Positions 21,817 to 56,202 of a stretch of DNA of 64,000 nucleotides are shown here, one piece after another; the first letter of the stretch is position 1; every line of letters starts with the position of its first letter. Under the pieces are notes generated by a model. That model made no database searches, was not told where the DNA came from, and saw nothing but the letters and a program-made list of their open reading frames with translations. The stretch comes from Malacoraja senta. Taxonomy: Eukaryota. The stretch covers positions 7,256,001 through 7,320,000 of the forward strand of contig CM075993.1 of NCBI GenBank assembly GCA_038087875.1, in the 5' to 3' direction. A program made the translations under genes and the position numbers.

Positions 21817-22560
21817 ATGGAGGTGGGCCACATCCCAGTGTCCGAGGGTCTGCCTCACGCCAGTGACATGACTGAGAAAGCCAGGAGCTACTCCACGTCT
21901 CAGTCGAAGCCCAGAAGCATGAATGCATACCCGCCGGTCTGCCGCTTTTACTCTCGAGGAAAGTACTGCCAGTTTGGCCGTAGGTGCCGGTTCCTGCACG
22001 AGCACCTGGAGCCACGGACGGCTCCAGGGGTGCCAGACAGCCCGTGCAGCGGTGCTGCAGCCGCGGAGAGCGCCCCTCGGTGCCAGGGCGGCGCCGAGTG
22101 CCCCACTGACGGCGGCACGGTGCGGTTTGCCGAGGACCCGGCCGCGCAGGGCCGAACGCGGTTTGGAACGCCCAAGCCGCCGCCGCCGGCGGCCCTCAGA
22201 GACAGAGCGAGGAGGCCGTGCCGCTACTTCCTGAACGGCTACTGCGTGATGGAGGAGCGGTGCCGCTTCTGGCACCCCGAGAGGTTGCCTGCCGTCAGGG
22301 ACCCCCTGGACCACGAGCCCGCCCGCATCAGCCTGAGACCGCCGGGGCCGCTCATACGAACGGCCGTCCCCCGTCCCGCCGTGGTTAAGGACGAGGTGAA
22401 GCTCACCGAGCTGACCCAAGAGGTCGCCCGCCAACTCCGAGACACTGAGATCAGCCAGCTGTTGAAACGCTTCCCCAAGGACCAGCTCATCGTTCAGAAG
22501 AGTGAGGATGGGAAGCAGACTTACTACCGCATCATGGTGGAGCCTACAGACCCCGACTGG
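21817..22560 (+). CDS. Coding exon 1 of an 11-coding-exon CCCH / RWD-like / CHY zinc-finger gene (start codon, two CCCH fingers, start of RWD-like domain)
   Basis: Acceptor ttctgtccacag ends at 21804 and the Kozak-like gccATGG has its ATG at 21817. CCCH motifs are CRFYSRGKYCQFGRRCRFLH (21940-21999) and CRYFLNGYCVMEERCRFWH (22219-22275). The exon ends VEPTDPDW, followed by donor gtgagt at 22561 (phase 0). Confidence 0.92.
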
Positions 22561-22808
22561 GTGAGTCCTGCACTCCCAACACTGCGTGGATCGAGTGATT
22601 TGAAGGAAACCGGCGCTTCGGCCCACCAGGTCCACGCCGACCATCGATCACCTGTTCGCACTAGTTCTGTGTTCGTAAGTTAGTGTTATGGGAGCAGAAT
22701 TAGGCCATTCAGCCCAGCACGTTTACTCTGCCACTTAACCATGGCTGATCTATTTTTCCCTCTTAACTCAATTTTCCTGCTTTCTTCCCAAAATCCCTGA
22801 CACCCTAA

Positions 22809-22991
22809 ATGGCCTGTCCCACTTATGTGATTTTTTTTTGGCAACTTGCCGGCACCCGTCATAGCCACAGCAGGTGGCCGAAATTTTCAACATGTTGAAA
22901 ATCCTGCGGCGACCAGAAAAAGGTACGGCTCTTTGGGCGACTACTCACACCATACAGGCGCCGAAAAAATCGCGTAACTGGGACAGGCCCT
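22809..22991. mobile_element. PIF/Harbinger-type MITE (related to 48548-48878)
   Basis: TIR ggcctgtccca / tgggacaggcc; TAA flanks; shares the internal palindrome ttttcaacatgttgaaaa. Confidence 0.75.
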
Positions 22992-25272
22992 TAAACCTGC
23001 GCCTTAAAAATACCCTATAACTTGACCTCCACAGCCATCTGTAGCGATTAATTCCACAGATTCAAAGTGTTATCCCACTTCTTCCCTTTTTACTTAACAT
23101 TACCTCTTTCAGTGGAAGGCTCCATCTTGCTTATATGCTTGATCTCAAGAATTCCAGTGCCTCGCAGTTTCAGTTTAGTTTCGACTTGCAGTGTGGAAGC
23201 CTGCCCTTCATCCCACCCAGTCCACACCACCATTCACACTTCTATCCAATCCCACTCCCTACACACCAGGGACAATTTACAGAGGGCCAATTCACCTACA
23301 AACCCGCAAGACTTTGGTATGTGCGGGGAAATGGTACATGCGGTCACGAGGGAACGTGCAAACTCCACACAGTCAGCACGCCAACCATCGATCACACGTT
23401 CTACATTATCCCAATTTCTCACCGTTTTACTTAATAATTCTTTTTTCAGTGGAAGGCTCCATCTTGCATATTTTTTATATCTCAAGAATTCCAGTACCTC
23501 ACAGTTTTAGTTTAGTCCTACCCAGTCCACTCTGACTATTGATCGCTAATTCTATGTTATCCCACTTTCTCATCCACTCCCTACACACTTGGGCAATTTA
23601 TAGATCAGTTGACCTGCAAACCCGCACGTCTTTGGGAAACCCACGCAGTCACAGGGAGAACATGCAAACTCCACACAGACGGCACCCGGAGTCGGGATCA
23701 AATCCATGTCTGGTGCTGTGAGGCAGCAGCTCTGTGCTGCCTGCGTTGGTGTCGACCGAGGCTTTGTTGATAGAATGAGCAAGTTGTAAATCTTCCTCCA
23801 GCTTAGAGCAATACTGTTGCATGGGGTACGCATCGTAGACATTCTCCCAGCTGTTTTGTTGCACTTTGTCCATTATTTTCTTCTTCGTCTGTACTGCTTC
23901 ACTTTACCTTTTAAATGCATAGAGGCGGCGGAACAGTAGAGTTGCTGCCTCACAGCGCCAGAGACCTCGGTTCGATCCTGACTACGGGTGCTGTCTGTAG
24001 AGAGTTTTTACGTTCTCTCTGTGACCATGTGTTTTTTTTTTGCCGGGTGTTCCGGTTTCCTTCCACATTCTAAAGATATGCAGGTTTGTAGGTTAATTGG
24101 CTTCTGTAAATTGTCCCGAATGTGTAGGATATAATGAGCGATCGCTGATCGGTATGGACTTCGATGGACCGAAGGGCCTGTTTCCTCGCAGTATCGCTAA
24201 ACTAAACGAACTTCCAAACTGTTCACTTCATGAATCATAGAAATGGCCCATTTGCTCTATTGTTCCTGCTATAAAGTCAAGTCAAGTCACTTTTATTTCT
24301 ATAGCACATTTAAAAAACAACTCTCGTTGGCCAAAGTGCTTTACATTGGTGGAGGTACTAACGTTATACAACAGTGGTTCATAGATTAAGTACATACATA
24401 AATACATACATATAGCCCGCCCTCGGAGGACGTCAAGAAAGGCTTGAGAGTAAAGATGAGTTTTAAGTCTCGACTTAAAGGAGTCGATGGAGGGGGCAGT
24501 TCTGATGGGAAGAGGGATGCTGTTCCACAGTCTAGGAGCTGGCAAAAAAATTTGGCAAAAAAAAAGGGGGGGACTTGATCCACTTTTTCCTTTTTTTCCT
24601 TTGGAACCATGCAACTCTTTCTTGTTATAATCCATCCCTTCGACAGAAATCTGAGGTATAGAGGTGGGACTAGAATGTACTGGGAAGACACAAGACTTCC
24701 CAGGACATATCATGGTGATCCATTAATTTAATTGGGTTCACCTGTATATTGTGCAATATATTTTAATAAAAGGAATTAAAAATGTCATAGAGTCATACAG
24801 CATGGAAGCAGGCTCTTCGGCCCAATTTGCCCACACGACCAACATGCCCCATCTACACTAGTCCCACCTGTGTGCGTTTGACCCATATCCTTCCACACCT
24901 GTCCTATCCAAATCATTTTTTTTAATGTTGTGGTAGTACCTGCCTCTACTACCTCTGGAGGCAGCCTATTTTATGTGCACTGGGAAGACTGAGACACTTT
25001 AGTTGTAGATCACTGGTCACAGTCTATCCCGGGTAATTGCAGATTAAAAAAAATAACGCAGGCGATAGAATTCTGAAAGAAAAAGTGCTGCGAATACTCA
25101 GCAGGTAAGGCAGCATCTATGGATGAGGAACAGTTAACCTGTCAGGGAAATGTTGTTTTTCTCAGATCTGACAAAATATCATTGAACTGAAAGGCCCTGT
25201 TTCTCTGTGGAAAATGCTGCCCGACCTGCTCAGCGCTTTGTTTTTATCCTCCCCCCAGCTTGCAATACATTA

Positions 25273-25705
25273 CAGTAAACCCCCGCAATAACGGACTGGG
25301 GAGGGAGTGGATCCATTGTCTGCTGTAACCGAGTGAGGGGGGTAAAAGTTTAACCCACAGTTGGGAGGGAAGAATCTGGGGGGATTAAACGAGCAGGAAT
25401 TCACAGGCCGGGGAGCCGCAGAGCCCCCGTTCCCACGTGCGACGGTGACGGACCCGGCACACACGCCACCTTCATCCTGCTCGCTCGCTCCGCTCCTGTC
25501 ATGGGCAGCTTGCACCGTGTGGGGGGGTGCAACGGGAACCTCGGTCCACTATAACTGAAATCCACTCAATAGTCTGAAGAAGGGTCTCCGCCCGAAACGT
25601 CGCCTATTTCCTTCGCTCCATGGATGCTGCCTCACCCACTGAGTTTCTCCAGCATTTTTGTCTACCTTCCACTCAATAGAGATCAGTTAGTGCGAGGGTT
25701 TACAG
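25273..25705. mobile_element. Tc1/mariner (pogo/Tigger-like) non-autonomous element
   Basis: TIR cagtaaacccccgcaataac / gttagtgcgagggtttacag, flanked by TA; contains a nested PLE-related short element with TSD tccactcaatag. Confidence 0.7.
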
Positions 25706-25907
25706 TATTCAGTTTGTGCATTGCATTGTAGAGCAGATATATTGGACTCAGTGCAGTGGTGTAAACTCACTACAATGCCATCCTTTTGCTAAAACATCCC
25801 TGATAATACCGATCCCCACAGTTTGTCTAATACAAGACCCACATACACCCAGTGGCCTGTCTTCATCCAACTCTATTTGATCGTTCTAGCCTTGTTGCCA
25901 GAACAAG

Positions 25908-26170
25908 GGCGGCACGGTGGCGCAGCGGTAGAGTTACTGCCTTGCCGCGTTTGCAGCGCTGGAGACCCGGGTTCGACCCCGACTACGGGTGCTGTCTGTA
26001 CGGAGTTTGTACGTTCTCCCCGTGACCGTGTGAGTTTTCTCCAAGATCTTCGATTTCCTCCCACACTTCAAAGAGTTACTGGTTTGTAGGTTAATTGGCT
26101 TGGGTAATCGCTGGTCGGTGCGGATCGATGGGCCGATGGGCCTGTTTCCGCTCTGTATCACTAAACTAAG
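25908..26170 (+). mobile_element. tRNA-derived SINE (HE1/V-SINE-like), representative copy
   Basis: A-box tggcgcagcggtag, B-box ggttcga, central gtgctgtctgtacggagtttgtacgttctccccgtgacc, and tail gggcctgtttcc...ctaaactaa. Further copies lie near 7175-7475(-), 19045-19320(+), 23925-24205(+), 28090-28355(-), 29860-30140(-), 30820-31085(+), 36765-37070(-), 40510-40810(+), 41280-41590(+), 42958-43232(+), 54575-54860(-) and 55070-55405(-). Confidence 0.85.
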
Positions 26171-26237
26171 CGATGAATCCTAATATGAAGAAGGGTATGA
26201 AGAAGAGTCTCGACCTGAAACGTTACCTATTCCAGAG

Positions 26238-26714
26238 ATAGACAATAGACAATAGATGCAGGAGTAGGCCATTCGGCCCTTTCGAGCCAGCACCGCCATT
26301 CAATGTGATCATGGCTGATCATCCCCAATCAGTACCCCGTTCCTGCCTTCTCCCCACCTCCTCTGACTGCTATTTTTAAGAGCCCTATCTAGCTCTCTCT
26401 TGAAAGCATCCAGAGAAACCCGCCTCCACCCCCCTCTGAGGCAGAGAATTCCACAGACTCACCACTCTCTGTGAGAAAAAGTGTTTCCTCGTCTCCGTTC
26501 TAAATGGCTTACTCCTTATTCTTAAACTGTGGCCCCTGGTTCTGGACTCCCCCAACATCGGGAACATGTTTCCTGCCTCTAGCGTGTCCAAACCCTTAAC
26601 AATCTTATATGTTTCAATGAGATCCCCTCTCATCCTTCTAAACTCCAGAGTGTACAAGCCCAGCTGCTCCATTCTCTCAGCATATGACAGTCCCGCCATC
26701 CCGGGAATTAACCT
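26238..26714 (-). mobile_element. CR1 LINE 3' fragment
   Basis: ORF 26385..26699; (attgtct)n tail. Confidence 0.85.
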
Positions 26715-27809
26715 TATTGACTGACCTGCTGAGTTGCTCCAGGATTTTGTCTATCTTTTTCAATCCTAATATTAATTTATCTGTGGAGCTTCACCCAGCC
26801 CTGGTGTTGAATTTCCTCTAATCTGCATAGCAAGCTATTTTTGCTCTTCACTCTTCTGTAGTGTTTCATTGCTGCCAAATTTGCAGCTGTAGCCATGTGT
26901 TCATCTATAAACGTTCCACAATTGCACTTCTTCCAAGCACTGCTTAAAAACCTGATCACTTTGCCTTTAAATCCTGTTTTCATAAAACATAGGAGCAGAA
27001 TTAGGCCATTCGGCCCATCGAGTCTGCTCTGCCTTTCTTTTTCCCTCTCAACCCTATTCTCCTGCCTTCTCCCTGTAACCTTTGACACCCTTCCCAATCA
27101 AGATCCTATCAATCTCCGCTTTAGGAACCTGTCCTCCACAGCCGTCTGTGGCAAAGAATTCTGCAGATTCACCACCCCCTGGCTCCACTCTAATGGTATG
27201 CCTTTTATTCTGAGGCTGTGCCCTCCGGTCCTGGGCTCCCCCAATATTGGAAACGTTCTCCACGTCCATGCAATTCAGGCCTTTCATTATTCAGTAGTTT
27301 TCGATGAGAATCCTTCTAAACTGCAACGAGTCTAGAGACTTCCAACGCTCTTCATACGTTAACCCAATGGTTCCTGGGATCATTCTCGTCAAACTCCTCT
27401 GTGCCCTCGCCAACGCCAGCAAATGCCTCCTCAGTTACGGGGCCCCATTAGCTTGGCTTTCAAACACCTCCCCCCCCCAATCTATCACCCATCATTAACA
27501 ACCCTTACTTATTCACTTTGTGAATGAGCTGGGTGGTGTTGAGTTTTTGCTTTCCACAGCCTGTCCTAACATTACAAAGATAGACACAAAGTGCTGGAGT
27601 AACTCAGTGGGTCAGGCAGCATCTCTGGGGGGAAGAATGAAAAGTCCCAACCCGAAACGTCACCCATCCTTTTTCTCCAGAGATGCTGTCTGACCCGCTG
27701 AGTTACTCCAGCACTTTGTGTCTATTATCGGTATAAACCAGCATCTGCAGTTCCTTCTTGCGCATCCTAACATTACAAAGTTGATTCTTATTCTCTCCTT
27801 CTCTTACAG

Positions 27810-27869
27810 CCTTTTGATTTGAAGGAGCTGGACATTCAGATTTCCTTCCCGGATGATTATCCTTTGGAG
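27810..27869 (+). CDS. Coding exon 2 (PFDLKELDIQISFPDDYPLE)
   Basis: Polypyrimidine tract plus ttacag acceptor; gtaaga donor; 60 nt, phase 0/0. Contains the FPxxYP motif typical of RWD/UBC folds. Confidence 0.9.
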
Positions 27870-29281
27870 GTAAGAAGTCATATTGCCGACGGCACAAAGT
27901 GCAGGCTTGCGCGTACTGGAGCTGTATCTGTTGCCACATTCTCTGGGGCATTATGTTACAATGAAAGGCAAGTTGTGGCTGACCACACTAATCTACGACA
28001 CAAACATTGCGGATTGTTTTTGGAAGAATGTAACAAACTCTATTCCTTCCGTCAGTAAGATCAATTCTGCTATATTCATCAACATAATTTAGTTCAGAGA
28101 TAAAGCACAGAAACAGGCCCTTCGGCCCACCCAATCCGCACCGACCAACCATCCCCCGCACATGAACATTATCCTACACACACGTGGGACAATTTACACC
28201 AAACCAAGTAACCTACATGCCAGTAGTGGAGTGTGGGAGGAAAGTGAAAATCTCCGAGAAACCCCACACGGTCACGGGGAGAGCGGACAAACTCCATACA
28301 GACAGCGCCCGTAGTCGGGATGGAACCCGGGTCTCTGGCGCTGGAAGGCAGCAACTATAAGAATAGTTTACACTAATAACCTTATGCTGTGTTGATCTAC
28401 CCACGCTAAGTCACATTTCGATGACTGCACCTGCAGAGGAACTGAAGTAGAAACGCCTAAATTACAGCACAGAAATAGGCCCTTCAGCCCAAGATGTCTG
28501 TGCCGAGCATGATGCCAAGATAAGCTGATCTCATCTGTATGTGATCCATATCCCTCCATTCTCTGCATATCCCTATGTGCCTATCTATATGCCTCTTAAA
28601 CGCCACTATTCTATCTACCTCCACCACCACCCCTAGCAGTGCGTTTCAGTCACCCACCACATACAGTGGAACTGTCCGCAAGGGTCATTCAGCTCGACCC
28701 CTGACCTTCAGTAGTTGAGGGAGGTGTATTTCTGGCCACACCTACTGCTTTCGCCCTGTTGCGATTAGATCTGCCAGAGGTGCGATACAGGTCCAACGCC
28801 GACTCTTCCGGCACCCTTGGTTCCAGAGCCTTTCTGGATTGTCCGTTTTGCCGGACCCACAGAGGTCACGGCCTCTGAGAGGAGTCGTGCAGTAGTGGAT
28901 CGGCCCGCCTAGGCCGCCAGGGGGCTGAGGTACCGGCCCGCAAAGTTGGCCTCGGAAGTCAGCTATGGGAACGGATCTGCCGGCTCCGGCCGGGCCGGAG
29001 TTCCAGAGCCCCGGCCGCAGGGGGCAAATTCCACCCGCCGATCGGTGCGGAAGCCCTGATGAGGTTGACATCGGCCGCCTCACCCGAGGTTGTTGCTACA
29101 TTTTTGCGGGGAGGTGGGGGGGGATCTCAAGTGCGCTCTCATAATTTTGTCCAGCTTAAAGGAGGTGCCGGACCACCAGTTGCCGGAAAATCGGTGGTGG
29201 ATCCGTGCTTCCCACTCTTTCTCCCACCTCAAATACGGGTAGCATGTTGCTCGATTCTCTTCATCTTTCTCTTCTTCTAAG

Positions 29282-29334
29282 GTGTTCACTTTGGACATTC
29301 CCGAGGATCAGGATCTGCCAGCGTCTATGGCAAG
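29282..29334 (+). CDS. Coding exon 3 (VFTLDIPEDQDLPASMA-R)
   Basis: Long pyrimidine tract plus taag acceptor; gtaagg donor; 53 nt, phase 0/2. Confidence 0.88.
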
Positions 29335-31122
29335 GTAAGGAGAAACAAGGATAAAATACTGAACCATTGGCATTGGTGTATCTCCTCGGTGTAGGCTTGG
29401 ACTGAAAACCCTGTGCTGTAGTTCAAGCCCGAGCTGTTTTCCAAAGATAAATGAATGCTTCTTTACTTTCACTGTAAAATCTTACTTGAGTGACCGCAAG
29501 AGTATATTAATGTCATCTCAATGTAAAGAAGAAAGAACTTGCCCCATTTATATGTAGACCAAAGATGCTGAAATCTGAAACAGCGGGTGGAAGAACTCAG
29601 TGTGTCAAGCAGCATCTGCGGAAGCAGAAGGTATACAACCCTGCACAAATTCAATTTTTCAAGATTTTGACAACAAGCCTAAGTGGTACCACGCTTTAAC
29701 TCGAATACAGACAGAGAAAGCATGAAACATTCAGTGGGGAATTGAGGGCTGTGGGCATGTTGGCATAGAAGGGGAAATGTGGCCTGGAGAAGATCTGCTA
29801 CGATCACATTGAATGGAAGGCTACGCTTGAGGGACCAGGAGGCCCGTTCCTGCTCCTACTTTAGAGATACAGCGGGAAGCAGGGTCGTTGGCTCACCGAG
29901 TTTGTGCCAAACAGCCATCACCCCGTCTGCCAGCGCTATCCTACACATTAGAGACAATTTACAATTTTTACCAAAGCCAGTTAACCGACAAACCTGTACG
30001 TCTTTGGAGTGTGGGAGGAAACCGGAGCACCCAGAGAAAACCCATGCGGTCACAGGGAGAATGTACAAACTCCGTACAGACAGCACCCTTAGTCAGGACC
30101 GAACTTGGGTCTCTGGTACTGTAAGGCAGCAACCCTACCACTGTATATATAACTATGACAGGCATTGATAGGGTAGACAAAATGTTTTCCCCCAGAACGG
30201 AAATGTCTAAGACCAGAACGCAGAGCTTTAAGGTGAGAGGAGCAATGTTTAAAGGAGATGTGTACGGTCAAGTTTTTTACACAGAGGTTGGTGGGGGCCT
30301 GGAACCTACTGCCAGGGGTAATGGTGGAGGCAGATATGACAGTGGCATTCAGAGGCTAATGGATATGGAGGGATATGGATCAAGTGTAGAATGAGATTAG
30401 TTTATCTTGGCGTTGTGTTCGGCACAGACATTGTGGGCCGATGGGCCTGATCCTGTGCTGTACTCTTCTATCTCCCATGACATCTAAAGACGTATCCTTT
30501 CAGTGGAGCGTTTACAGGTGTGGCAACTTGTGCGTGGAGCAAAATAGATTTTGCATGACCAGCCCCTTGCGAGATGTAGCAGTGAGAGCTTCAGTTGCCT
30601 TGTTTGATTATGCAGCAGAATTGTGGTCACTACCATCAGTCAGGAAGCACCATAGGATATGATGTTCATCAGTTGTTGGAAGAGCCGCAAGATCTTTAAC
30701 CCAAACCTGAAAGCAAAATGTTACTGAGAGAATACATGACAAAACTGGGTACTATACAAGGCAGTGGTAGGGGTCATAAGGAATAGGAGTAGAATTAGGC
30801 CATTTGGCCCATCAAGGTTATAGCGCCCGATCTCCGGGTTCGATCCTGACTATGGGTGCTGTCTGTACAAAGTTTGTTCTCCCCGTGACCCACGTGGGTT
30901 TTCTCTGAGATCTTTGGTTTCATCCCACACTCCAAAAACGTACAGGGGTGTAAGTTAACTGGCTTGGTATAAATGTAAATTGTCCCTAATGTGTGTGGGA
31001 TAGTGTTAATGTGCGGGGATCGCTGGTCGGTGCGAACCCGGTGGTCGTGAGAAGGGCCTGTTTCCGTGCTGTATCTCTGAACTAAAAGGCAGAATGAATT
31101 CTCATCCCAACCTCTTTCCTTC

Positions 31123-32730
31123 CAATCAAATCAAATCAATCAAATCAAAAACTTTATTTGCCATTTGTGCTTACACACATAGGAAATCTTGTGCGGTTGT
31201 TCAGAGAGTCAAGTCAAGTCGAGTTAAAAAGACACACAGAAAAACACATAATCTATAAAAACATATACTTCTCTAGAAATATAAAAGAAAAGTGCCTAAA
31301 ACCCTATGTTATGAGGTGGATCAGGGCATCAGTTCATTTTGTTTTGGCCAAGAGTCTCACTGTGGCAGGGAAGAAACTCTTGAAAAAGCGTGTTCTGTTT
31401 ATGACGATGCTGTCCGCTCGTCTGTGCCTGAGGTTGTATGTGCAGTTTTTGTGTTTGAGCAGGGAGTGAGCTGGATGTAGTGTGTCTCTGATGATTCTCT
31501 CTGCTCTTTTTTGACAGCGCTGTGTAGATTGTTTCCATGGAGGGAAGTTCCGTTCTGATAATCCTCTCTGCAGTCTTTATGACTCTTTGCAGAGCCTTCC
31601 TCTCTGTCTGTGTGGTGTTTCCATACCACACCGTGATGCCTGTGGTGAGGATGCTCTCTATCAGTCCTTTGTAGACCTGGGTGAGAGGGCGACAGTGCAG
31701 ACCAGCTTTTCTGAGCAGCCTGATGAAGTACAGTCTCTGCTGGGCTTTTTTCACTGTTGCAACAGTGTTCAAAGTCCAGTTCAGATCTGATGTTACTTGT
31801 AATCCCAGGTATCTGTAACTGTCAGCCCTCTCCACCACAGTCCCCTTGATGATGAGGGGCTGCAGGGGGGGTAGATTTTTTCTGAAGTCCATTATTATTT
31901 CTCTTGTCTTGTCTGTGTTGAGGCTTAGGTCGTTCACCTCACCATAGGCAAGAATGTCATTCACCAGATTCCTGTAGCCCGACTCGTCCCCCCCCTTGAT
32001 GAGGCCCAGGATGGTGGTGTCATCCGCATACTTAATAATGATGGTATTTTCCTGGGTGGAGACACAGTCGTGTGTGTACAGGGTGAAAAGTTTGGGACTG
32101 AGACAGCAGCCTTGTGGTGATCCTGTGCTGACGGTGAGCTCTGCAGACACCCTCCTTCCCATCCTCACCACCTGTGGTCTTTCAGTCAGGAAATCCAAGA
32201 TCCAGTTGCAGGTGGGAGTCGGGACGCCGAGGTCTGTCAGCTTCTCAGTCAGCCTGCCCGGGCGAATGGTATTAAAAGCCAAACTGTAATCCAGGAACAG
32301 CGTTCTGACGTATGTTCCTCTGCTGTCCAGATGTTGCAGGATGTGGTGTAGAGCAATGGCCACTGCGTCGTCCACTGAGCGGTTGGGGCGGTAGGCGAAC
32401 TGGAGGGGGTCGATCGTGCCCGGGACCATGTGATTGATATGTGTGAGAACCAGTTTTTCTAGACACTTCATGGCAACTGGCGTGAGTGCCACTGGCCTGA
32501 AGTCATTCAGGGTGGATGGATTAGGTTTTTTTGGAACTGGTACGATGGTGGAAAATTTAAAAATACGGGGGACCACTGCTTGGTTTAAAGACAGATTGAA
32601 GATGTCTACATACACTCCAGTGAGTTGTTCTGCACAGGCCTTCAGAACTGTAGGAGGGACGCCATCTGGTCCCACAGCCTTGTGGGGGTTCACCTGCCTC
32701 AGAGCTTTCAGGACCTGTGTGGGTGTCACC
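31123..32730 (-). mobile_element. Rex1/Babar-type LINE, 5'-truncated RT fragment, in the intron between coding exons 3 and 4
   Basis: ORF 31329..32729 contains LNDFRPVALT, LQFAYRPNRSVDDA, GSPQGCCLSP, YADD and KKAQQRLYF. The 3' end has aataaa plus a (gattt)n tail. Confidence 0.9.
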
Positions 32731-33017
32731 TGAAAGACAGTGGCTTTTCACTGACAACTTCGGTGCACGTCACAATAATAAACAGAAGGTAAACTAAAGT
32801 CTGAGGGAAGGGGAGCCTGAAGAAAGGTCCCAACCCGAAACATCACCTATCCATGTTCACCAAGGATGCAGCCTGACCTGCTGAGTTACTCTAGCACTTT
32901 GTGTCTTTTTTTCCTGAGGTAAACTAAATTGAGTTTGTACAGTAAAGCTCTGGTGATTCATTCACGATTATTTGTAAATTTGTAAATATATACTCTTGTG
33001 CAATATATTTTAATAAG

Positions 33018-34718
33018 CTCTGTGCCGAACAACTGGCACCGGTGTACACAGACATTTTCAACCAGTCAATGCAAACCTGTACTGTCCCTAGGTACACAAA
33101 AATGCTGGAGAAACTCAGCGGGTGCAGCAGCATCTATGGAGTGAAGGAAATAGGCAAAGTTTCGGGCCGAAAACCCTGAAGGAAATAGGCAACGTTTCGG
33201 GACGAAACCCGGAAGGGTTTCGGGCCGAAACGTTGCCTATTTCCTTCGCTCCATAGATGCTGCTGCACCCGCTGAGTTTCTCCAGCATTTTTGTGTACCT
33301 TCGATTTTCCAGCATCTGCAGTTCCTTCTTTAACACCTGTACTGTCCCTGCCTGCTTCAGAGTCTCCACTATTGTCCCTTTACCCAAAAAGGCAAGGATT
33401 ACTTGTCTTAATGACTACAGGCCTGTCGCACTGACCTCTGTAGTCATGAAGACCCTTGAAAGGCTTGTACTGGCCAAGCTGAAAAATATCACGAACCCCC
33501 TGCTGGACCCTCTGCAGTTTGCATATCGGGCCAATAGATCTGTGGATGACGCAGTCAACCTGGGCCTGCACCTCATCCTCCAGCACCTAGACCGCCAGGG
33601 GAACTATGCGAGGATTTTGTTTGTTGATTTTAGCTCTGCATTCAACACCATTGTGCCAGAGCTACTACACTCCAAATGTTCCGAGTTGACTGTGCCTGAA
33701 CCCCTCTGTCAGTGGATCACCAGCTTCGTGACAGACAGGAAGCAGCATGTGAGGCTGGGAAAGCACCTCGGACCAGCAAACGCTCAGCATAGGAGCACCG
33801 CAAGGCTGCGTACTCTCTCCTCTCCTTTCCTCTACTCTCTCTACACCAATGACTGCACCTCTACTGACTCCTCTGTCAAGCTTCTCAAGTTTGTGGACGA
33901 CACAACCCTGATTGGACTGATCCAGGATGGGGAGGAATCTGCCTACAGACAGGAAGTGGCACAGCTGGCGTCCTGGTGCCATAGCAACAACCTGGAGCTC
34001 AATGCTCTTAAGACAGTGGACTTTAGGAGAGCTCCCCCTCCCGTCCCCCCACTCACCATCAACAACACCACAGTCACATCTGTGTAGTCTTTTAAGTTCC
34101 TGGGAACCATCATCTCCAAGGACCTTAAGTGGGGGGCTACCATCAACTCCACAGTCAAAAAGGCACAACAGAGGATGTACTTCCTGCGGCTGCTGAGGTA
34201 GCACAATCTGCCACACGCAATGATGGTCCAATTCTACACGGCCATCGTAGAGTCTGTCCTCTCCTTCTCCATCATGGCGCAGCCACCAAGCACGACATCC
34301 GGAGGCTGCAGCGAATCATCCGATCAGCTGAGAAGGTTATTGGGTGCAACCATTCCCTCCCTTCCCTCCTCCCTCCCTCCTGCAAGGGCCAGGAAGCGAG
34401 CGGGTAGATCACCTCTGACCCCTCTCACCCTGGCCACAAACTCTTTGAATCACTTCCCTCCGGACTGTCAAAGCCACCACAGCCAGACATAAAAACTGCT
34501 TTTTTTCCACGAGTAGTAGCTCTACTCAACAACGAAAAATCTGTAGTCGCCTTATGCTCTGGTATTTTATTTAATTCACATGTTTAATCAATAATGTTAT
34601 ATTATTTTTAATGTTTTATGTATCATTCTTAACTGTCACTGTATGTCATGTTGTCACTTGCGGGCGAAGCACCAAGCAAATTCCTTGTATGTGAATACTT
34701 GGCCAATAAACTTATTCA
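33018..34718 (+). mobile_element. Rex1/Babar-type LINE, 5'-truncated and decayed, interrupted by a fold-back element at 33090-33334
   Basis: [50 protein letters not shown] and KKAQQRMYFLR, with stops and frameshifts; aataaa near 34705. Confidence 0.88.
33090..33334 (+). mobile_element. Short fold-back element related to the PLE 3' end (representative copy) with 15-bp TSD
   Basis: Long internal inverted repeat; TSD acctgtactgtccct at 33075-33089 and 33335-33349; interrupts a Rex1 ORF. Confidence 0.85.
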
Positions 34719-35452: not shown

Positions 35453-35597
35453 GCACGTGTGCAACGCCTCAGAGGAGTGGCTTCAGGCCAAACATGCCAC
35501 CAACAGGCTGACAGGAAAACTCGAGCTGCTGTTTCGTCCGTACCTGCGGTGGCTCGATCGCAACCTGGAGAAGCTGTTCATCGAGGGAGCCAGAAAG
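35453..35597 (+). CDS. Coding exon 4 (HVCNASEEWL...LLFRPYLRWLDRNLEKLFIEGARK)
   Basis: ccacctcag acceptor; gtaaga donor; 145 nt, phase 2/0, open in the frame required by exon 3. Confidence 0.9.
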
Positions 35598-42133: not shown

Positions 42134-43867
42134 GTCAGTTCGTAAAGCGGGTGCCTCTTCCGAATGTAACTTTGGATACGTGGGTCACGACTTACCTGTT
42201 GGCGATTCCAGTGGTTTTTCCTCCTCTTGCATAAAAGGTTAAGGACCATAAGACATAGGAGCAGAATTAGGCCATTCGGCCCATCGAGTCTGCACCGCCC
42301 TTCGATCATGGCTGAACTATTCTTCCTTCTCAACCCCCTTTTTCCTGTTAACCCTTGACGCCTTTAACAATCAAGAACTGTGAAGGAAGGAACTGCGGAT
42401 GCTGGTTTAAACCGAAGATAGACACAAAATCACAAAATGCTGGAGTAACTCAGCGGGACAGGCAGCATCTCTTGAGAGAAGGAATGGGTGACATTTTGGG
42501 TCGAGACCCTTCCTATCTCTCCAGAGATGCTGCCTGTCCCGCTGAGTTACTCCAGCATTTTGTGTCTACCTAAAAAGTTATCAATCTCCACTTTAAAAAC
42601 ACCCAACGACTTGGCCTCCACCGCCATCTGGATTCCACAGATTCACTGCCCTCTGGCTAAAGAAATATAGTGGAGATAGACCTTTGTATTGTGTTATTAT
42701 ATGAGCCATATTGCATTGGGCACCTTAATGAGAAAGCAACAGGTTTTGGGCATCTGGATCGGTGACTCCCAGCCCTTAACATCCACAGTCTGAAAAGTAA
42801 TCAAACATTTGGACTTGCAGCCCATTTTTTAAGTTGACACTATAAATGAATTGATAATTCTGTCAAAATGATTCAAGTTTTCATTAACATTTTAATTTGG
42901 CATTGTAGTGAGTCACAAAATTAAAACATTAAATACAAATACATTTTTCATAATTTGGGGGTGGCGCAGTGGTAGAGTTGCTACGTTGCAGCGCCAGAGA
43001 CCCGGGTTTAATGCTGTCTGTACGGAGTTTGCACGTTCTCCCCATGACTTGCGTGGGTTTTCTCCGAGATCTCCCATCTCCTCCCACACTCCAAAAACAT
43101 ACAGGTTTGTAGGTTAATTGGCTTTGGTAAAATTGTAAATTGTCCCTATGCATTAGTGTGCGGGGATCGCTGTTTGGCGCGGACCTGGTGGGCCGCGGGG
43201 CCTGTTTCTGCGCTGTATCTCTAAACTAAACTAATTGACAAACAAGTATGAAGTGAAATTTAAATTAAATTTTGAACCCCCCCCCCTCATAGCCCAGTTT
43301 CAATCCTTCGTGGGGCCAGTTTTGGGAGCAGCTAGTGGTTGGGAAGCAGTGATCTAGATGATGTATGCGTGCGGTCAGATATTCTGGGGACCTTAGATTA
43401 CAGCAGAACAAACAGAGAATTCTAAAAGGGCTTCGTCCACAATGGAAGCCTGTGTTTCCCAGTCCGATACTGATTTAAACTCCTCTGTATCTCCGGGTCT
43501 TTGTGTTTGTTTCCTATCTTTTATATTTTCCCTTTAAGATTGTGTTTGACCCATTACCACCTCATATTAGACAGCGAAGGAAAGCAAACCCATGCTTCAG
43601 AGTCACAGTGTCACTTTGTCTTGCCAAGGCATATACTTAAAATGTGCAAAGATAGACACAAAATGCTGGAGTAATTCGTGGGTCAGGCAGCATCGCTGGA
43701 GAAAAGGAATAGATGACGTTTCAGGTCTGAAGAAGGGTCTCGACCTGAAATGTCACCTTTTCTCCAGAGATGCTGCCTGACTCGCTGAGTAACTCCAGCA
43801 TTTGGGTCTATCTTCGGCATAAACCAGCCTCTGCAGTTCCTTCCTACATACTTAAACTCTGTGATAT

Positions 43868-44706
43868 GAGATTAGAGATTAGAGATTCCTTTATTTGTGA
43901 TTCAGACCTTTCGGTCTGAACGAAATTTTGTTGCCTGCAGTCATACATATAATAATAAATAACAAAACACACAATAAACACAAATTAACATCCACCACAG
44001 TGAGTTCACCAGGCACCTCCTCACTGTGATGGAGGCAAAAGTCATAAAGTCTCTGTCTCTTCCCTCTTTGTTCTCCCTCTGCGCTGAGGCGATCCAGGCT
44101 TCTGATGTTGTGACCCCGCCGGGTGATGGTAAGTCAATCCCGCGGCTGAATCCGTGCTCCGTCCGCGACGGGCCGGTTCAAACTCCGCGGCCCGGGGTGG
44201 CCGAAGCTGCCGCCCTCCAGTCCAGCGGACGCAGCTGTAGTTGCGGGAGCCCCAGAAAAAACAGGGCACCAACCTGTGACCTGCGAGCTCCCGACGATGT
44301 CGCCCACCGGGCCCGCGGCCGAGCCTCCGGATTCAGGTCGCCACCAGTGTCCTCGGTCGCCACCGCCGGAACGCCACCGCAGCCCCGAAGCAGGCCAGCC
44401 CCGCGCTGGTAAGTCCTGGCTCTGCCTCCAGGGCCTCGAGGTCGGTCGCTCGCAGTTGGAGTTGGAGGCCGGCAGCTCCGCCATTAGGCCTCGGCGCAGA
44501 CGGAGGCAGAGAAGGGGGATACGACAAGAAGAAGTCGCATTCCCCCGAAGGAAGAGACAAAAATCATGTTTCACCCCCCACACCCCACACATACACAACC
44601 CAATAAACTAAAATTTAACTAAAACAGGACAAAAGAAAACAACAAAAAAAGTAAAAACAGACGGACTGCAGGCGAGCCGCAGCTGTTCGACAGCGCCGCC
44701 ACTTCC
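43868..44706 (-). mobile_element. Unclassified non-autonomous retroelement with a GC-rich body
   Basis: On the minus strand it has aataaa plus an (aatctct)n tail at about 43870-43895. A short segment (aacatccaccacag...tcactgtg.tgga.g) recurs near 52010-52045. No recognisable coding motif. Confidence 0.45.
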
Positions 44707-44779
44707 AGAGGGTTGAAAGACTATTTTTGATGTAGTTTTACAATCAAAAGGGTTCAGTTCCTGATTAGGTTTCGGAAGT

Positions 44780-45460
44780 GCAAAGGGACGGGAGTGCTGG
44801 TGCAGGATTCCCGAAAAGTTAATTTGCAAATCGAATCGTTAGCAAGGAAGGCAAACGCATTTATTTCAAGAGGACTCTAATACAAAAATAGGGATGTAAT
44901 GCTGAGGTTTTGTAAGATGCTGGTCAGACAGCATTTGTAGTATTGTGAGCAATTTTGGATCCCATATCTGAGGAAGGATGTGCTGGCGCTGGAGAGTTTT
45001 AAGAGAATGATCCCAGGAACAAGTGGGTTAACTAACATAGGATGAGCGTTTGACAGCACTGGGCCTCTACTCGCTGGGCTTTAGAAGGGGAAACCTCATT
45101 GAAACCTACAGAACAGTGAAAGGCCTGGATAGAGTGGATGTGGAGAGGGTGTTTCCACTAGTGGGAGAGTCGAGGACCAGAAGTCACAGCCTCAATAAAA
45201 GGATGTTCCTTTTAAATGGAGATGAGGAGGAATATCTTTAGTCAGAGGATGGTGAATTTGTGGCATTCATTGCCGCAGAAGGCTGTGGCGGCCAAGTCAA
45301 TGGGTATTTCTAAGGCAAAGATAGATAGATTCTTGATGTCATGAGCCATAGGGAAAAGGCAGGAGAATGAGGTTAAGAGGGAAAGATAGATCAGCCATGA
45401 GTGAATGGCAAAATAGACCTGATGGACTGAATGACCTAATTCTGCTCCTATCACTTATGA
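44780..45460 (+). mobile_element. Older CR1 LINE 3' fragment
   Basis: Degenerate LGLYSL..GNLIETY..TRSH motifs plus a CR1-type 3' UTR. Confidence 0.75.
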
Positions 45461-46207
45461 AGCATTGTTTTGCACGCTATCGCATCAAATCGGATAAAAC
45501 TATTCCTAAATACAATCAAGCCAAACTCAAATACAACAGTTAGAGCAAAGGGAAAGATACAGAATGCACTATACAGTTTTCAGCGGGTTAGATACATAGT
45601 ACAGTACAGATCTCAGCAGGGAAAAATATGCAGTATGTAGTTCTCAGCACAGTAGTGCAACAGGTTCAGAGGCAACGTCCAATGTTTCCAATGAGCTAAA
45701 GGTGAATGGGACTGTACAATAGCTGATGGAACTTTGCACTGTAAAGTAAGTAAGTTAGTTTATTGGCCAAGTATTCACATACAAGGAATTTGCCTTGGTG
45801 CTCCGCCCACAGGTAACAACATGACATACAGTGACAGTGACGAATGACTCAGAAAACACTAAACATTAATAATAATAAAACATTTATGATAAAACACCAT
45901 TGATCAAGCATGTGAACCAACAAAATACCAGATCAAAGGGAGGCTACAGATTTTGGCTGTTGAGTAGAGCAACTACTCGTGGATAAAAACTGTTTTTATG
46001 TCTGGCTGTGGCAGCTTTGACAGTCCGGAGTCGCCTTCCAGAGGGAAGTGATTCAAAGAGTTTGTGGCCAGGGTGAGAGGGGTCAGAGATGATCTTGCCC
46101 GCTCGCTCGCAGTTAGGAGCTATATTTAACTCCATTGAGAGTCTCCTGTATTTTTTGTTAACCCTCTGAGTGACCGCAGTTGCTAACTCTTCTCTCTTGT
46201 TGTCCAG

Positions 46208-46325
46208 GGTCTAACGTACGGGCGGTACAAGGAACTAAACTGCTTGCACTGCCACGGGAAGCTGAGTGTGTTTGCGGAGGCGGCCCAATTTTACCAGATG
46301 AACGCCCAGTCAGAGGATGAAATGG
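46208..46325 (+). CDS. Coding exon 7 (GLTYGRYKELNCLHCHGKL...SEDEM)
   Basis: cttgttgtccag acceptor; gtgagc donor; 118 nt, phase 0/1. Confidence 0.88.
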
Positions 46326-50755: not shown

Positions 50756-50879
50756 ACAATAAGAATTCAGTTCACCGACATCCGAAGAGGCTGCCCCAAG
50801 TATCGACCATCCAGCTGGGGAAGCCTCTGCCTGAGTTTGGCACTTGCGGCCACTACAAGAAGAGTTGTCGCTGGCTCAG
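50756..50879 (+). CDS. Coding exon 8 (…GKPLPEFGTCGHYKKSCRWL-R), start of CHY finger
   Basis: Poly-T tract plus ctctag acceptor; gtaagg donor; 124 nt, phase 1/2; CxHY motif. Confidence 0.92.
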
Positions 50880-52193
50880 GTAAGGTCTGCTCTAACTTCG
50901 GCTTTTGTGGCTGAATAATAGGCAGCAGGTCATTCGGCCCTTCGAGCCAGCACCGCCATTCACTGTGATCATGGCTGGTCACCTATGGAACTGATGCACT
51001 ACGATGCTGAGAACTATATTCTGCACTCTGCATCTTGCCCTTTGCTCTACCTATTGTGCTTGACCTTGAGTTTGACCTGATAGAATAGCAGGTAGACAAA
51101 AGTGCTGGAGAAACTCAGCGGGGTGCAGCAGCATCTATGGAGCGAAGGAAATAGGCAACGTTTCGGCCCGAAACGTTGCCTATTTCCTTCGCTCCATAGA
51201 TGCTGCTGCACCCGCTGAGTTTCTCCAGCACCTTTGTCTACCTTTGATTTTCCAGCATCTGCAGTTCCTTCTTAAACACAACTGATAGAATAGTAAAGCT
51301 TTTCAGTACATCGGTACACATAAAAATCATAAACCTAAACCTACATTATATCCTGTTTAAGAAGGAACTGCAGATGCTGGAAAATCGAAGGTAGACAAAA
51401 ATGCTGGAGAAACTCAGCGGGTGAGGCAGCATCCATGGATGCTGCCTCACCCGCTGAGTTTCTCCAGCATTTTTGTCTACCTACATTATATCCTCATTTT
51501 TTTTATAGCCTGTACCCCACCGATCATTTAGATGTAGAGAGTTGGAGCAAGATTATTCTCCCTGCAGATTTTGGGTTCAGGACCCACTCCTGCTCAATGT
51601 GACCATGTTTAAGGATAATTTAGTTTACAGATACAGCGCGGAAACAGGCCCTTCAGCCCACCGAGTCCATGTCCACCGGCGATCACATGGTACACTAGCA
51701 CAATCCTACACACTAGGGACAATTTACTGAAGCCAATTAACCTAGAAATCTGTAGGTCAGGACTACTCGCTGGTTGGTGAAAGGACAGTCCAATTGCCTG
51801 ATAACAACTGGGAAGAAACTGTCCCTGAATCGGCAGGTGTGCGTTGTCACACTTTTTGCCTGATGGGAGAAGAGGGGGTGATGGGGGTGAGACTGGTCCT
51901 TCAATCAATATCAATATCAGTTTTGTTCGTAATTTTATTTTACATGAATTTGCCAGCAGCGGTACAATGAAAAAAGAACACACAACAACACAATAAAAAT
52001 TTAACACTAACATCCACCACAGCATTCATCACTGTGGTGGAAGGCACAAAGGTTGGCCAGTCCTCCTCCATTTCCCCCCGTGGCCGGGCCCTCAACCTTG
52101 ATTATGCTGGTGGTCTTGCGGAGGCAGCGTGGCCTGTGTGTGTCTCTGCATGCGGCAGTGTTTTAAATGTTCCTCTTCTGGTGAATCTTTCAG

Positions 52194-52305
52194 GTTTCAG
52201 TGTTGCGGGAAAGCCTACCCGTGCGACCTGTGTCACGACAACAGGCAGGACCACCTGATGGAGATGGCCACACGCATGATCTGTGGCTTCTGCGCCAAGG
52301 AGCAG
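52194..52305 (+). CDS. Coding exon 9 (FQCCGKAYPCDLCHD...MICGFCAKEQ), CHY finger core
   Basis: ctttcag acceptor; gtgagg donor; 112 nt, phase 2/0; CC-x5-C-x2-CH-D and CxxC pattern of zf-CHY. Confidence 0.93.
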
Positions 52306-54427
52306 GTGAGGGGCGGCCGTTTCAGCTTGGTCTGTTGTCACCTGTGCCGAGGTGCAGTGAAAAGCTTTTGTTGCGTGCTATCCAGTCAGCAGAAAGACAA
52401 TACATGATTACAATCGAGCCATACTGTGTATTTGCAGTACAGTACAAGGGATAACGTTTAGTGCAAGGTAAAGCCAGCACAGTCCGAGCAAGGAAAGTCT
52501 GAGGGTCACCAAAGAGGTAGATAGTAGTTCAGCACTGTGTCCGAGTAACCTTGGGTGACCTGACAGTATGGGACGTGATAATCGTGTTCAGTTTATGTAG
52601 GAAGGAACTGCAGATGCTGCTTTACACTGAAGACAGACACAAAATGCTGGAGTAACTCAACATGTTACTCTGGAGAAAAGGAATAGGTGAAGTTTCAGGT
52701 GGAGACCCTTCTTCAGCCTGAGAATTGGGGGTGTGAGATACATCCCCTGATACCTCTCGTCTCCCTCTCCCCTGACTCTGTCTGAAGCAGGGTCTCGACC
52801 CTATTGCTTTTCTCCAGAGATGCTGCCTGACAGCTGAGTTACTCCAGCGTTTAGTGTTCATCTCTCATTTAGTTTATGGTTGCCATGTGTACCAAGGTGC
52901 AGTGAAAAGCTTTTGTTTGTGCTGTCCAGTCAGCCAAAAGACAATACATGATTACAATCAATGTCTTCAGTACACAGATAAAGGATAAAGTGTACAACAT
53001 TTAGTGCAAGATGAACTCCAATTAAAGATTGGTCTCTAGTGAGGTCGATCGGAGGTCAGAACCGCACTCCAGCTGATGAGAATGATGGATCTTATAGAAA
53101 CATATAAAATACTGGACCTTATAGAAACATATAAAATACTTAAGGGATTGGAGAGGCTAAATGCAGGAAAAATGTTCCCCATGTTGGGGGAAGTCCAGAA
53201 CCAGGGGTCACAGTTTAAGAATAAGGGGTAGGCCATTTAAGACTGAGATGATGGAAAACTTTTTCACCCAGAGAGTTGTGAATCTGTGGAATTCTCTGCC
53301 ACCGAAGACAGTGGAGGCCAATTCACTGGATGGTTTCAAGAGAGTTAGATTTAGCTCTTAGGGCTAACGGAAATTATGGGAATGCAAGGGGGTTGGTGAG
53401 GAGTTGTTGGGCTGAATGGTATCCTGCTTTGTTGGAAGAGAATATGAAAGTGATGGTGGTGAAGAGCTACTGTGCAGAGTGTGGTGAAGTTCTGCCTCCA
53501 CTGGTGTTAGTTAGGGTGCTCGATGTGGCTGAGACTTGCTGAGGATAAAGGCACTAAATTTCCAAGACAGGACACAGTGCCTGCCCGCTGAATTACTCCA
53601 GCAAAAGTGTCCTTTTTTTGCAAAACAGCATCTCAATTCTTGTTAGATGGACAGAGACAGACACAAAGTGGTGGAGTAACTCAGCGGGTAAGGCAGCATC
53701 TCTGGAGAAAAAGGGTGGGTGACAATAGACAATAGGTGCAGTAGTAGGCCATTCGGCCCTTCGATGTGATCATGGCTGATCATCCCCAATCAATACCCCG
53801 TTCCTGCCTTCTCCCCATATCCCCTGACTCTGCTATTTTTAAGAGCCCTATCTAGCTCTCTCTTGAAAGCATCCAGAGAACCGGCCTCCACCGCCCTCTG
53901 AGGCAGAGAATTCCACAGACTCACCACTCTCTGTGAGAAAAAGTGTTTCCTCGTCTCCGTTCTAAATGGCTTTCCCCTTATTCTTAAATTGTTTCAGGTT
54001 GGGACCCTTCTTCAGACCTTCTCAGTTCCAAGCCAATTGGTCTTGTGCAACTTTGAATGAAAGATATACAGCTTTAAAAACATGCCCTTTGGCCCACCAA
54101 CCATGTCCCAGCCAACCATTGATCATCCATTCACACTAGTTCTATACTATCCCACTTTCACGTCCATTCCCTACACACAAGGGGCAATTTGCAGAGGTCA
54201 ATTAACCTGCAAACCTGCACATCTTTGGGGTGTGGGAGGAAACTGGAGCACCGGTGGAAAACCCACACGGTCACGGGGAGGACACTTCTCTGGTCTCTTG
54301 CGCTGTGAGCAAGCAGCTCTCCCAGCTGCACCACTGGGCTGCCCAAGTGGGGGGGGGGGTGTGTAGTCTAGTCTGGGCCGCGGCCGAGCTGCTCCATCTC
54401 TGACTCACGCAGTGCGCTTGTTTCCAG

Positions 54428-54540
54428 CCGTACAGCAACGGGAAGCCGTGTGCAGCCTGCGGAGCCATGATGACCAAGGGATCCCACACCAGCCACTGGG
54501 AAGGAGGCCAAGGCTGTCGGAGCCAGATGCGGATGAGTCG
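54428..54540 (+). CDS. Coding exon 10 (PYSNGKPCAAC...HWEGGQGCRSQMRMS-R)
   Basis: tttccag acceptor; perfect gtaagt donor; 113 nt, phase 0/2. Confidence 0.92.
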
Positions 54541-55978
54541 GTAAGTCTCCCCCGTGCCGATCCTCGTCTCTTTACTTTAGACTGTGGAGTTACAGCGTGG
54601 AAACGGGCTCCGCCGACCAGCGATCGCCCGTACACTAGCACCATCCTGCACACTGGGGACAACTCACGGTTTATAAAAGCCAACTGACCCACAAACCTGC
54701 ACATCTTTATAGTGTGAGAGGAAACTGGAGCACCCGGAGAAAACCCACACGGTCACAGGGAGAACGTACAAACTCTGTACAGACAGCACCGTAGTCAGGA
54801 TTGAACCCGGGTCACTGGCGCTGTGAGGCAGCAACTCTACCGCTACGCCAACGTGCCGCCCTATTCTCGGTGTCCCCGACTTGCAAAGTCGGAGAGCGGG
54901 ATTGCTCTTATTCACGAGAAAATCCCGCTCACAACCTGCACTGGAATTATTTTCCTGGTTTGCTGATGCTTACACTTATATTTTTACTTTTTTACTTAAT
55001 GTTTCCTCTTCAATAGAAGCCTCCATCTTACATAACTCCTTAATCTCAAGAGTACCAGTGCCTCGTGGTTTTAGTTTAGTTGAATGATACAGCATGGAAA
55101 CAGGCCCTTCGGCGCACAATGTCTACGCTGGACATGATGCCAGTCCACGCCAACCAACCGTCACAGGTTCACACTAGTTCTATGTTATCCCACTTTCTCA
55201 CCCACTCCCTACACACGAGGGGCAACATAGAGGCCAATTAACCTACAAACCCTCCCGTCTCTGGGAGGAAACCAGAGCACCCGGAGGAAACCCACACAGT
55301 CACATGGGGAACGTGCAAACCCCACACAGACAGCACCTGAGGTCAGGATGGACCCCAAGTCTCTGGTGCTGTGAGGCAGCAGTTCAACCCGCCGCACCAC
55401 TGTGCCGTCTCACAGGTTCTAAGATCAATGTCCAATGTCTCCCCTCCTGTGGTTCCTCTCTGTCACCCAGCATGTTGAAGGGCAAGTCCATGGGCGGGCT
55501 TAGATTTAGCGAGTGGTGAAAGTGCTGGGTGCATGTCTATGCGAGCATGTTTATTGCGAGCATGTTTATGAAGGAACTGCAGATGCTGGAAAATCGACGG
55601 CAGACAAAAATGCTGGAGACACTCAGCGGGTGAGGCAGCATCTATGGAGCGAAGGAATAACTCTTTCCCCATGCTTATTAAGGATGCATTCCATCCCCCG
55701 CTGTGCCGAGCGGTCCCGGAAATCGCCCAGTGTGCCCGTGGACCCGCATGGCCCTTCTCTAGGACCACCCTGGCGCGGATGTAACCCCGGAAAAGGGGCA
55801 GGCAGCCGGTTCTGGCGGAGCCCTCTTCCGCCTGGCGCCGCGCGCGACTGCCTTTTTCTTTTGGTGCATTTTAACCGAATCGTCCACTTGTTGATTAATG
55901 GCGCGAGGGTGATTGACCGTTCCTCTGCTGAGCCCGCTCGCCTTTAACCCCGCGTTGCACTCTGTGTTCCTTACGCAG

Positions 55979-56051
55979 CAAAGACAAGCAGAAGTACTCG
56001 AACGCTGCGAAGACGGTCTCTCGCCGGTCTCTGCACCAGCAGCCCAAGTGA
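55979..56051 (+). CDS. Terminal coding exon 11 (KDKQKYSNAAKTVSRRSLHQQPK*)
   Basis: ccttacgcag acceptor, phase 2; TGA at 56049-56051; AATAAA 146 nt downstream. Confidence 0.87.
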
Positions 56052-56196: not shown

Positions 56197-56202
56197 AATA
56201 AA
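56197..56202 (+). promoter_or_regulatory. Candidate proximal polyadenylation signal of the zinc-finger gene
   Basis: AATAAA shortly after the stop codon. Confidence 0.5.

Follow-up and report, generated by a model that had tools for sequence, protein, structure and literature searches.

The window analysed here is a stretch of 64,000 nucleotides from the skate Malacoraja senta (GenBank assembly GCA_038087875.1, contig CM075993.1, positions 7,256,001 to 7,320,000 of the forward strand; positions below are those of the window unless the contig is named). A sequence-only reading had proposed, at 21817-56051, a complete gene of 11 exons whose 733-residue product combines two CCCH fingers, an RWD-like segment, CxxC pairs and a CHY finger, and had called this architecture unusual. 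The locus raises the question of whether such a gene is real and, if so, what a protein built of these modules might do. The architecture itself turns out to be on record: Patil et al. (2023) describe an "RWD-fused clade", in which a CHY core had been joined with RWD and CCCH domains no later than in eukaryotes' last common ancestor (LECA), predict that its members bind E2 enzymes or ribosomes, a role similar to the one proposed from the sequence, and note an acidic residue in the pocket (bioRxiv 10.1101/2023.05.03.539038; PMC10591846). The skate gene is another member of this already described, unstudied clade. Our additions are a domain with the predicted fold of DUF866/MDF1 and paired CxxC sites, and a likeness of the RWD domain to Yil161w, neither of which was found in the searchable literature.

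A real and intact gene of the RWD-fused clade

A search by exon length and phase recovered all 11 exons at exactly the lengths proposed earlier, as a single coherent chain on the + strand. The spliced coding sequence of 2202 nt runs in one frame from ATG to TGA, its only stop being the terminal one, and all ten donors are GT and all ten acceptors AG, in agreement with the exon structure predicted from the letters. The product aligns without gaps to an independently annotated 733-residue si:dkey-24l11.2 protein of Leucoraja erinacea (P0001), with 698 of 733 residues identical (95%); for this reason the gene model is not a matter of chance. On a quick tree of 35 rows, which recovered the main vertebrate groups and followed species relations, the skate gene was sister to that of Leucoraja (Shimodaira-Hasegawa-like approximate likelihood ratio test, 100). 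Judged by its sequence, the skate gene is a real, intact orthologue of the uncharacterised si:dkey-24l11.2 of fish, cartilaginous fish and amphibians, from which it shows no substantive difference and whose entries are all uncharacterised or automatically named. When one exon was used as query against the skate's own genome, a single match was returned. Several fish and frog homologues of 650-680 residues are encoded on contigs of just 2.0-2.7 kb, which we infer to be spliced transcripts.

The protein resembles the RWD-fused clade in its combination of CCCH fingers, RWD domain and CHY module, in its wide eukaryotic spread, in an aromatic residue at the site of Pirh2 Tyr23 and in an acid that replaces the basic residue of the Arg41 site. 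The main-text passages of Patil et al. are silent on a DUF866-like domain, on tandem RWDs in fungi and on Yil161w; their Figure S10 may show some of these. No mention of dkey-24l11.2 was found in the searchable literature, nor, in searches that miss most subscription papers, any paper linking DUF866/C1orf123, MDF1 or Yil161w to the CCCH-RWD-CHY family. Schizosaccharomyces pombe SPBC18H10.09 is a presumed member, and a full-length member was found in Saitoella, a fungus related to S. pombe. A Theileria gene bears the name "C18H10.09" (PMC4583173).

The RWD domain and its likeness to Yil161w

The structural model was made with AlphaFold2 on the Leucoraja orthologue; it shows separate confident domains joined by disordered linkers (mean predicted local distance difference test score, pLDDT, 75.5; predicted template-modelling score, pTM, 0.42). 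Residue counts refer to an alignment of 145 chosen rows, 21 from the homologue listings and 124 of 147 new representatives, the other 23, mostly fragments or lacking a domain, being left out; the counts depend on this choice. The RWD domain covers residues ~198-340 (22408..38510, + strand, exons 1-5). The RWD-like segment of the sequence-only reading is backed by the model and by Foldseek and VIA rather than by Pfam, whose RWD entry had no passing match on the Leucoraja orthologue and passed its cut-off in two relatives. By DSSP, the model consists of a helix, three to four strands and two helices, in keeping with the alpha-beta-beta-beta-alpha-alpha fold of RWD domains, at a pLDDT of mostly 93-97. 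The motif typical of RWD domains is YPxxxP: [YF]P is present in 132 of the 145 rows, and the final proline is missing here (YPLEVF) and rare across the family.

Against seven RWD entries the model scored VIA Z 9-11.6, and true E2s scored lower. The top score belongs to Yil161w (7zw0_sj; Z 11.6, 130/135 residues, root-mean-square deviation (rmsd) 5.1), with 11.0 for RWDD3 and 10.5 for GCN2; 7zw0_sj also tops the RWD matches in Foldseek (E 9.7e-4). When the family profile was run against the PDB, its best match, zinc fingers aside, was Yil161w, which is chain sj in 7ZW0, the FAP-80S complex (E 2.7e-5). In a profile of 22 rows with tandem RWDs it was the second RWD that matched Yil161w (E 3.2e-10), the next-ranked RWD lying at 8.9e-4. 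Because the whole-protein matches to Yil161w, with bias values of 6.6 and 7.9, took in a stretch rich in K and N, a core-only profile was built from 12 second RWDs of fungal type; over positions 4-115 of 119 it matched Yil161w at E 9.1e-7 with a bias of 0.1, and the next RWD followed at 0.019. The bias is thereby eliminated, yet the test cannot count as blind, the region having been picked for having matched already. Profile and fold searches thus predict that the closest solved match of the RWD domain, including the helix preceding it, is Yil161w of the Fap1-80S complex, a best-match relation seen in one direction only, from the family profile to Yil161w. This is a likeness and not a demonstrated orthology: Yil161w has 235 residues and nothing that matches the CCCH, DUF866-like or CHY parts. 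Presumably, Yil161w is a partner of Fap1 in 18S decay. Fap1 attaches polyubiquitin chains to uS3 of stalled monosomes (PMC9953336).

Two RWD-like segments were detected in 27 of 308 proteins; three of these represent one domain split in two, and the remaining ones with names are fungi. Tandem RWDs occur in many fungal members (P0230, P0255, P0267, P0289, P0290 and others), the second being the most like Yil161w, with which a Penicillium member has the string SQINYL in common.

A middle domain with the predicted DUF866/MDF1 fold

The CxxC pairs reported earlier are present, but the domain to which they belong had been overlooked. Foldseek and VIA on two models predict that residues 447-585 (38829..46300, + strand, exons 5-7) adopt the fold of DUF866, C1orf123 and MDF1, and the eight cysteines of this region are invariant (145/145 rows). 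Each of the top seven Foldseek matches, at E 2e-6 to 2e-4, was a DUF866/MDF1 chain, and VIA gave Z 12.8 for C1orf123 (135 residues aligned, rmsd 2.9), 11.1 for Plasmodium 1zso, and 10.9, 9.9 and 9.5 for three microsporidian MDF1 chains. With a second model, that of a 393-residue homologue, DUF866/MDF1 chains scored Z 12.7-9.3; two Pirh2 chains were matched through the CHY part, and the next unrelated structure scored 4.4.

The domain shares with DUF866/C1orf123 (CZIB)/MDF1, whose repeated beta fold spans about 150 residues, a predicted all-beta structure of about 135 residues and an internal two-fold repeat. HHalign aligns its two halves over 56 columns with a probability of 94%, and in 284 of 309 proteins the second half is also matched by a profile of the first. 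Each half carries CX2C-X17/18-CX2C, so that the domain would hold two zinc sites. C1orf123 has the same internal symmetry, with zinc in the first half only (PMC6166629, PMC6160046); it is a stand-alone protein whose single site, CX2CX30CX2C, lies in the N-terminal half, whereas the skate domain is embedded and has its shorter sites in both halves. PF05907 found no match at E<=1 in 9 proteins or at E<=0.5 in 12. Given this and the two shorter CxxC-CxxC sites, we predict that the domain has the DUF866 fold without belonging to the family. Weak Pfam matches to cytochrome c, CpXC and zinc-ribbon entries were rejected as chance matches to CxxC. MDF1, for its part, imitates a deacylated tRNA and blocks the E site of the ribosome (PMC8807834, PMC10522483).

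The CHY pocket and the CCCH fingers

Pfam and fold search place a CHY treble clef and zinc ribbon at residues 624-687 (50845..54472, + strand, exons 8-10), as had been read from the sequence. In the Leucoraja orthologue zf-CHY scores 39.5 bits against a cut-off of 31.3, and the module matches Pirh2 7ynx at Z 8.9 (rmsd 1.9, 68 residues). With a relative aligned to 2k2c, Y627 falls on the Tyr23 site of Pirh2 and D646 on its Arg41 site; both are kept in 140 of the 145 rows, none has Arg or Lys at 646, and the Arg54 site is mostly hydrophobic in the family. With Arg41 replaced by Asp and Arg54 mostly by hydrophobic residues, the pocket should not read the carboxylates of Ala tails, and it may take a basic ligand.

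The CHY module is the point of likeness to RCHY1/Pirh2 and Hot13. In contrast to these, the skate protein carries it at the C-terminus, without tripled treble-clef repeats. RING domains were sought by Pfam and by pattern and none was found, which, together with the replaced Ala-tail arginines, excludes RCHY1/Pirh2; makorins, which carry a C3HC4 RING among their CCCH fingers, are excluded by the same absence. The sequence-only reading was right on both counts. NUP42, an automatic UniRef name, was rejected as well: that protein has FG repeats, and just three scattered FG dipeptides occur in the 733 residues. Many homologues are automatically named "Nucleoporin NUP42" (UniRef) or "Rchy1", and both names look wrong.

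By sequence pattern, CCCH finger 1 (C-x8-C-x5-C-x3-H) lies at residues 42-61 (21940..21999, + strand) and finger 2 (C-x7-C-x5-C-x3-H) at residues 135-153 (22219..22275, + strand). Both of these previously noted fingers pass Pfam in the Leucoraja orthologue (zf-CCCH, 33.7 bits against a cut-off of 20.5), and, since the model and the fold searches back the RWD domain, the proposed CCCH, RWD and CHY architecture holds. The CCCH regular expression is unmatched in many family members, and invertebrate members have up to 6 fingers. Near the C-terminus, WxGGxGxR of the basic tail is found in 141 of the 145 rows.

Distribution of the family

All 75 matches of one search and the best 120 of 473 from another yielded 154 distinct homologues, from sharks, rays, a chimaera, bony fish, a coelacanth, lungfish, amphibians and one nemertean; the other full-length vertebrate members are 44-80% identical to the skate protein. 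No amniote appears among the 125 listed homologues assigned to species, and each of the other 29 shares 76% identity or more with a protein from a fish, lungfish or amphibian, in agreement with the earlier remark that no mammalian member is known. Since 353 of the 473 matches lie outside the listing and the search depends on shared words, these data only suggest that amniotes lost the gene. Such a loss, if confirmed, would mark a difference in surveillance between fish or frogs and mammals. Among 1.84 billion representatives, a profile matched 643 proteins at E<=1e-30, of which the best 150 were listed, 30 of those checked for names and 24 clusters named. Among these 24 clusters are metazoans (hagfish, starfish, a brachiopod, a scorpion, nematodes and a fluke), fungi (chytrids, blastoclads, zygomycete-grade fungi, Saitoella, Penicillium and Blastobotrys), an oomycete and an amoebozoan, and the matches bear out an ancient, broadly conserved and uncharacterised family. 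The oomycete homologue P0236 has another domain order, RWD and then two CCCH fingers with a weak Myb-like match, as Patil et al. mention.

A proposed role and its alternatives

The protein has no RING and no conserved E2 cysteine, the best cysteine column of the RWD domain reaching 27 of the 145 rows, which argues for an adaptor rather than an enzyme. We tentatively favour, at somewhat less than even chances, an adaptor without catalytic activity of its own that serves RNA/ribosome surveillance, in the quality control of ribosomes or mRNA. Three modules point independently to ribosome quality control: the RWD domain through Yil161w (Fap1-80S), the middle domain through MDF1 (dormant ribosomes) and the CHY module through Pirh2 (the Ala-tail pathway). 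In such an adaptor, binding of mRNA or rRNA would fall to the CCCH fingers and the basic tail, the DUF866-like domain may contact the small subunit or the E-site region as MDF1 does, and the RWD domain could recruit an E2 or an E3 of the Fap1/NFX1 type. In place of an Ala-tail carboxylate, the CHY pocket, acidic at the point where Pirh2 carries a basic residue, would recognise a basic peptide or terminus, and stalled or idle ribosomes might in this way be parked or marked with ubiquitin. The adaptor role linked to ubiquitin or translation control that was first suggested from the letters is therefore plausible, and the passages of Patil et al. on E2 or ribosome binding point the same way.

Several results weigh against this proposal. 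The domains show no confident mutual packing, as the low pTM indicates. By structure, Yil161w ties with RWDD3 and RWDD2A (within 1 Z); a single fungal second RWD used as query left Yil161w unmatched at E<=10, and when short Yil161w-like relatives were sought with the fungal alignment, none of 7746 candidates reached E<=0.001. The middle domain is 6-16% identical to DUF866/MDF1 chains, and a shared fold shows no function; its net charge is -1 in the skate, and the family median is +4. Human C1orf123 has been linked to mitochondrial respiration and to the binding of a copper chaperone, and its 40S pull-downs are doubtful (PMC6166629, PMC6160046). Deletion of SPBC18H10.09 caused no nuclear poly(A) retention (bioRxiv 10.1101/2020.07.01.181719; PMC8645331). 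A functional measurement for any family member was not found in the literature searched.

The same modules admit other readings. The protein could act off the ribosome in RNA decay or processing (exosome or mRNA turnover), its CCCH fingers picking the RNA and its RWD and CHY domains recruiting proteins; we regard this as possible but unlikely. The fingers are indeed like those of TTP and other RNA-binding proteins, and their number in invertebrate members would suit such a role, yet many members do not match the CCCH pattern at all, and the likeness to Yil161w and MDF1 would be left unexplained. If SPBC18H10.09 belongs to the family, as we assume, its behaviour cuts both ways. In an RNA-interactome study, its occupancy on poly(A)+ RNA rises more than 2-fold in exosome mutants (bioRxiv 10.1101/2020.07.01.181719; PMC8645331), but its deletion gave no phenotype in the assays described, with neither nuclear RNA retention nor a rise in tf2-1 (bioRxiv 10.1101/2020.07.01.181719). 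A zinc-handling or mitochondrial-import adaptor, modelled on Hot13 for the CHY module and on C1orf123 for the DUF866 fold, seems to us improbable. Hot13 binds Mia40 and takes its zinc (bioRxiv 10.1101/2023.05.03.539038), and C1orf123 binds the HMA domain of CCS and is tied to respiration (PMC6166629, PMC6160046); however, the aromatic cage of Hot13 is missing at the Arg41 site, where 140 of 145 rows have Asp, the eight cysteines are invariant as expected of structural zinc, and the CCCH fingers and RWD domain indicate RNA and ubiquitin.

We give little credence to a tRNA- or Elongator-linked factor acting with KTI12, the gene directly upstream on the same strand. KTI12 is fused to the gene in two frog models, weak DUS3L-type CCCH scores were seen, and MDF1 mimics the tRNA elbow (PMC8807834, PMC10522483). 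Against this, the skate KTI12 gene ends at a stop codon of its own some 28 kb before the ATG studied here, one of the fused models contains retroelement-like sequence (by eye), and the fusion is seen in just 2 of the 154 listed homologues, synteny alone being common. That the protein is itself a ubiquitin ligase like RCHY1 or a makorin, its Cys-rich middle being a cryptic RING or RBR, appears very improbable. CHY and CCCH domains are common to RCHY1 and makorins, and an RWD of the RNF14 type stands among the Atlas look-alikes (score 0.76, a lead only), but a RING is missing by both Pfam and pattern and the middle domain is predicted to fold as DUF866 and not as RING or IBR, and the cryptic RING/RBR was rejected on these grounds.

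A bolder form of the surveillance adaptor, which we consider rather unlikely, would make the family the full-length ancestral form of Yil161w: a factor of LECA age, uniting in one chain the RWD of a Fap1/NFX1 cofactor, a two-zinc, MDF1-like domain mimicking E-site tRNA and a Pirh2-like peptide pocket, that couples ribosome hibernation to ubiquitin-driven 40S decay, of which budding yeast kept the RWD only and which amniotes lost. Taken by itself, the gene adds one more ordinary orthologue to a family that is annotated but unstudied, and the value lies in the reading of its domains. If the domain reading holds, the gene would be a candidate animal counterpart of the Fap1 cofactor and a testable ribosome-dormancy factor for zebrafish and Xenopus, and the two-site domain would be a living example of the symmetric DUF866 ancestor proposed in PMC6166629.

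Exons, neighbouring genes and repeats

All features of the gene are on the + strand. Coding exon 1 (21817..22560) encodes residues 1-248, with both CCCH fingers, a low-complexity linker and the start of the RWD domain, which continues through exon 2 (27810..27869, 60 nt), the bearer of its YP motif, exon 3 (29282..29334, 53 nt) and exon 4 (35453..35597, 145 nt), the last holding its C-terminal helices. Exon 5 (38493..38923, 431 nt) encodes a helix, a disordered linker and the start of the DUF866-like domain and is followed by exons 6 (41905..42133, 229 nt) and 7 (46208..46325, 118 nt). The CHY module starts in exon 8 (50756..50879, 124 nt), exon 9 follows (52194..52305, 112 nt), the WEGGxGxR motif begins at 54494 in exon 10 (54428..54540, 113 nt), and the coding part of exon 11 (55979..56051, 73 nt) holds the basic tail and TGA. 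A putative pyrimidine-rich splice acceptor, AG at 21803..21804, lies 12 nt 5' of the ATG and implies an upstream exon, so the transcript probably does not begin with coding exon 1. The assembly has a gap of 200 bases at 18425-18624, 3.2 kb upstream of that exon. An AATAAA at 56197..56202, 145 nt past the stop, is a candidate polyadenylation signal.

The upstream KTI12 gene is multi-exon and occupies contig positions 7221292-7249694. Beyond the window end, at 4-5 kb (4257-4924), lies a gene of the fatty-acid-hydroxylase family, presumably CH25H-like, which has an in-frame stop and a stretch seemingly out of frame and looks like a pseudogene or an assembly error. Three database models join these neighbours to family members, KTI12 in two frogs (P0052, P0054) and the fatty-acid hydroxylase in one teleost (P0067); we rejected them as annotation read-through into true neighbours, and the same neighbours in frog and teleost indicate conserved gene order and not fusion. 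By eye, broken open reading frames (ORFs) like those of long-terminal-repeat retrotransposons, with gag, protease, reverse-transcriptase and integrase motifs, were seen at 12328-17621, and fragments of reverse-transcriptase ORFs like those of long interspersed nuclear elements at 3545-6181 (- strand), 31329-32747, 33257-34087 and 47021-47878, three of them intronic.

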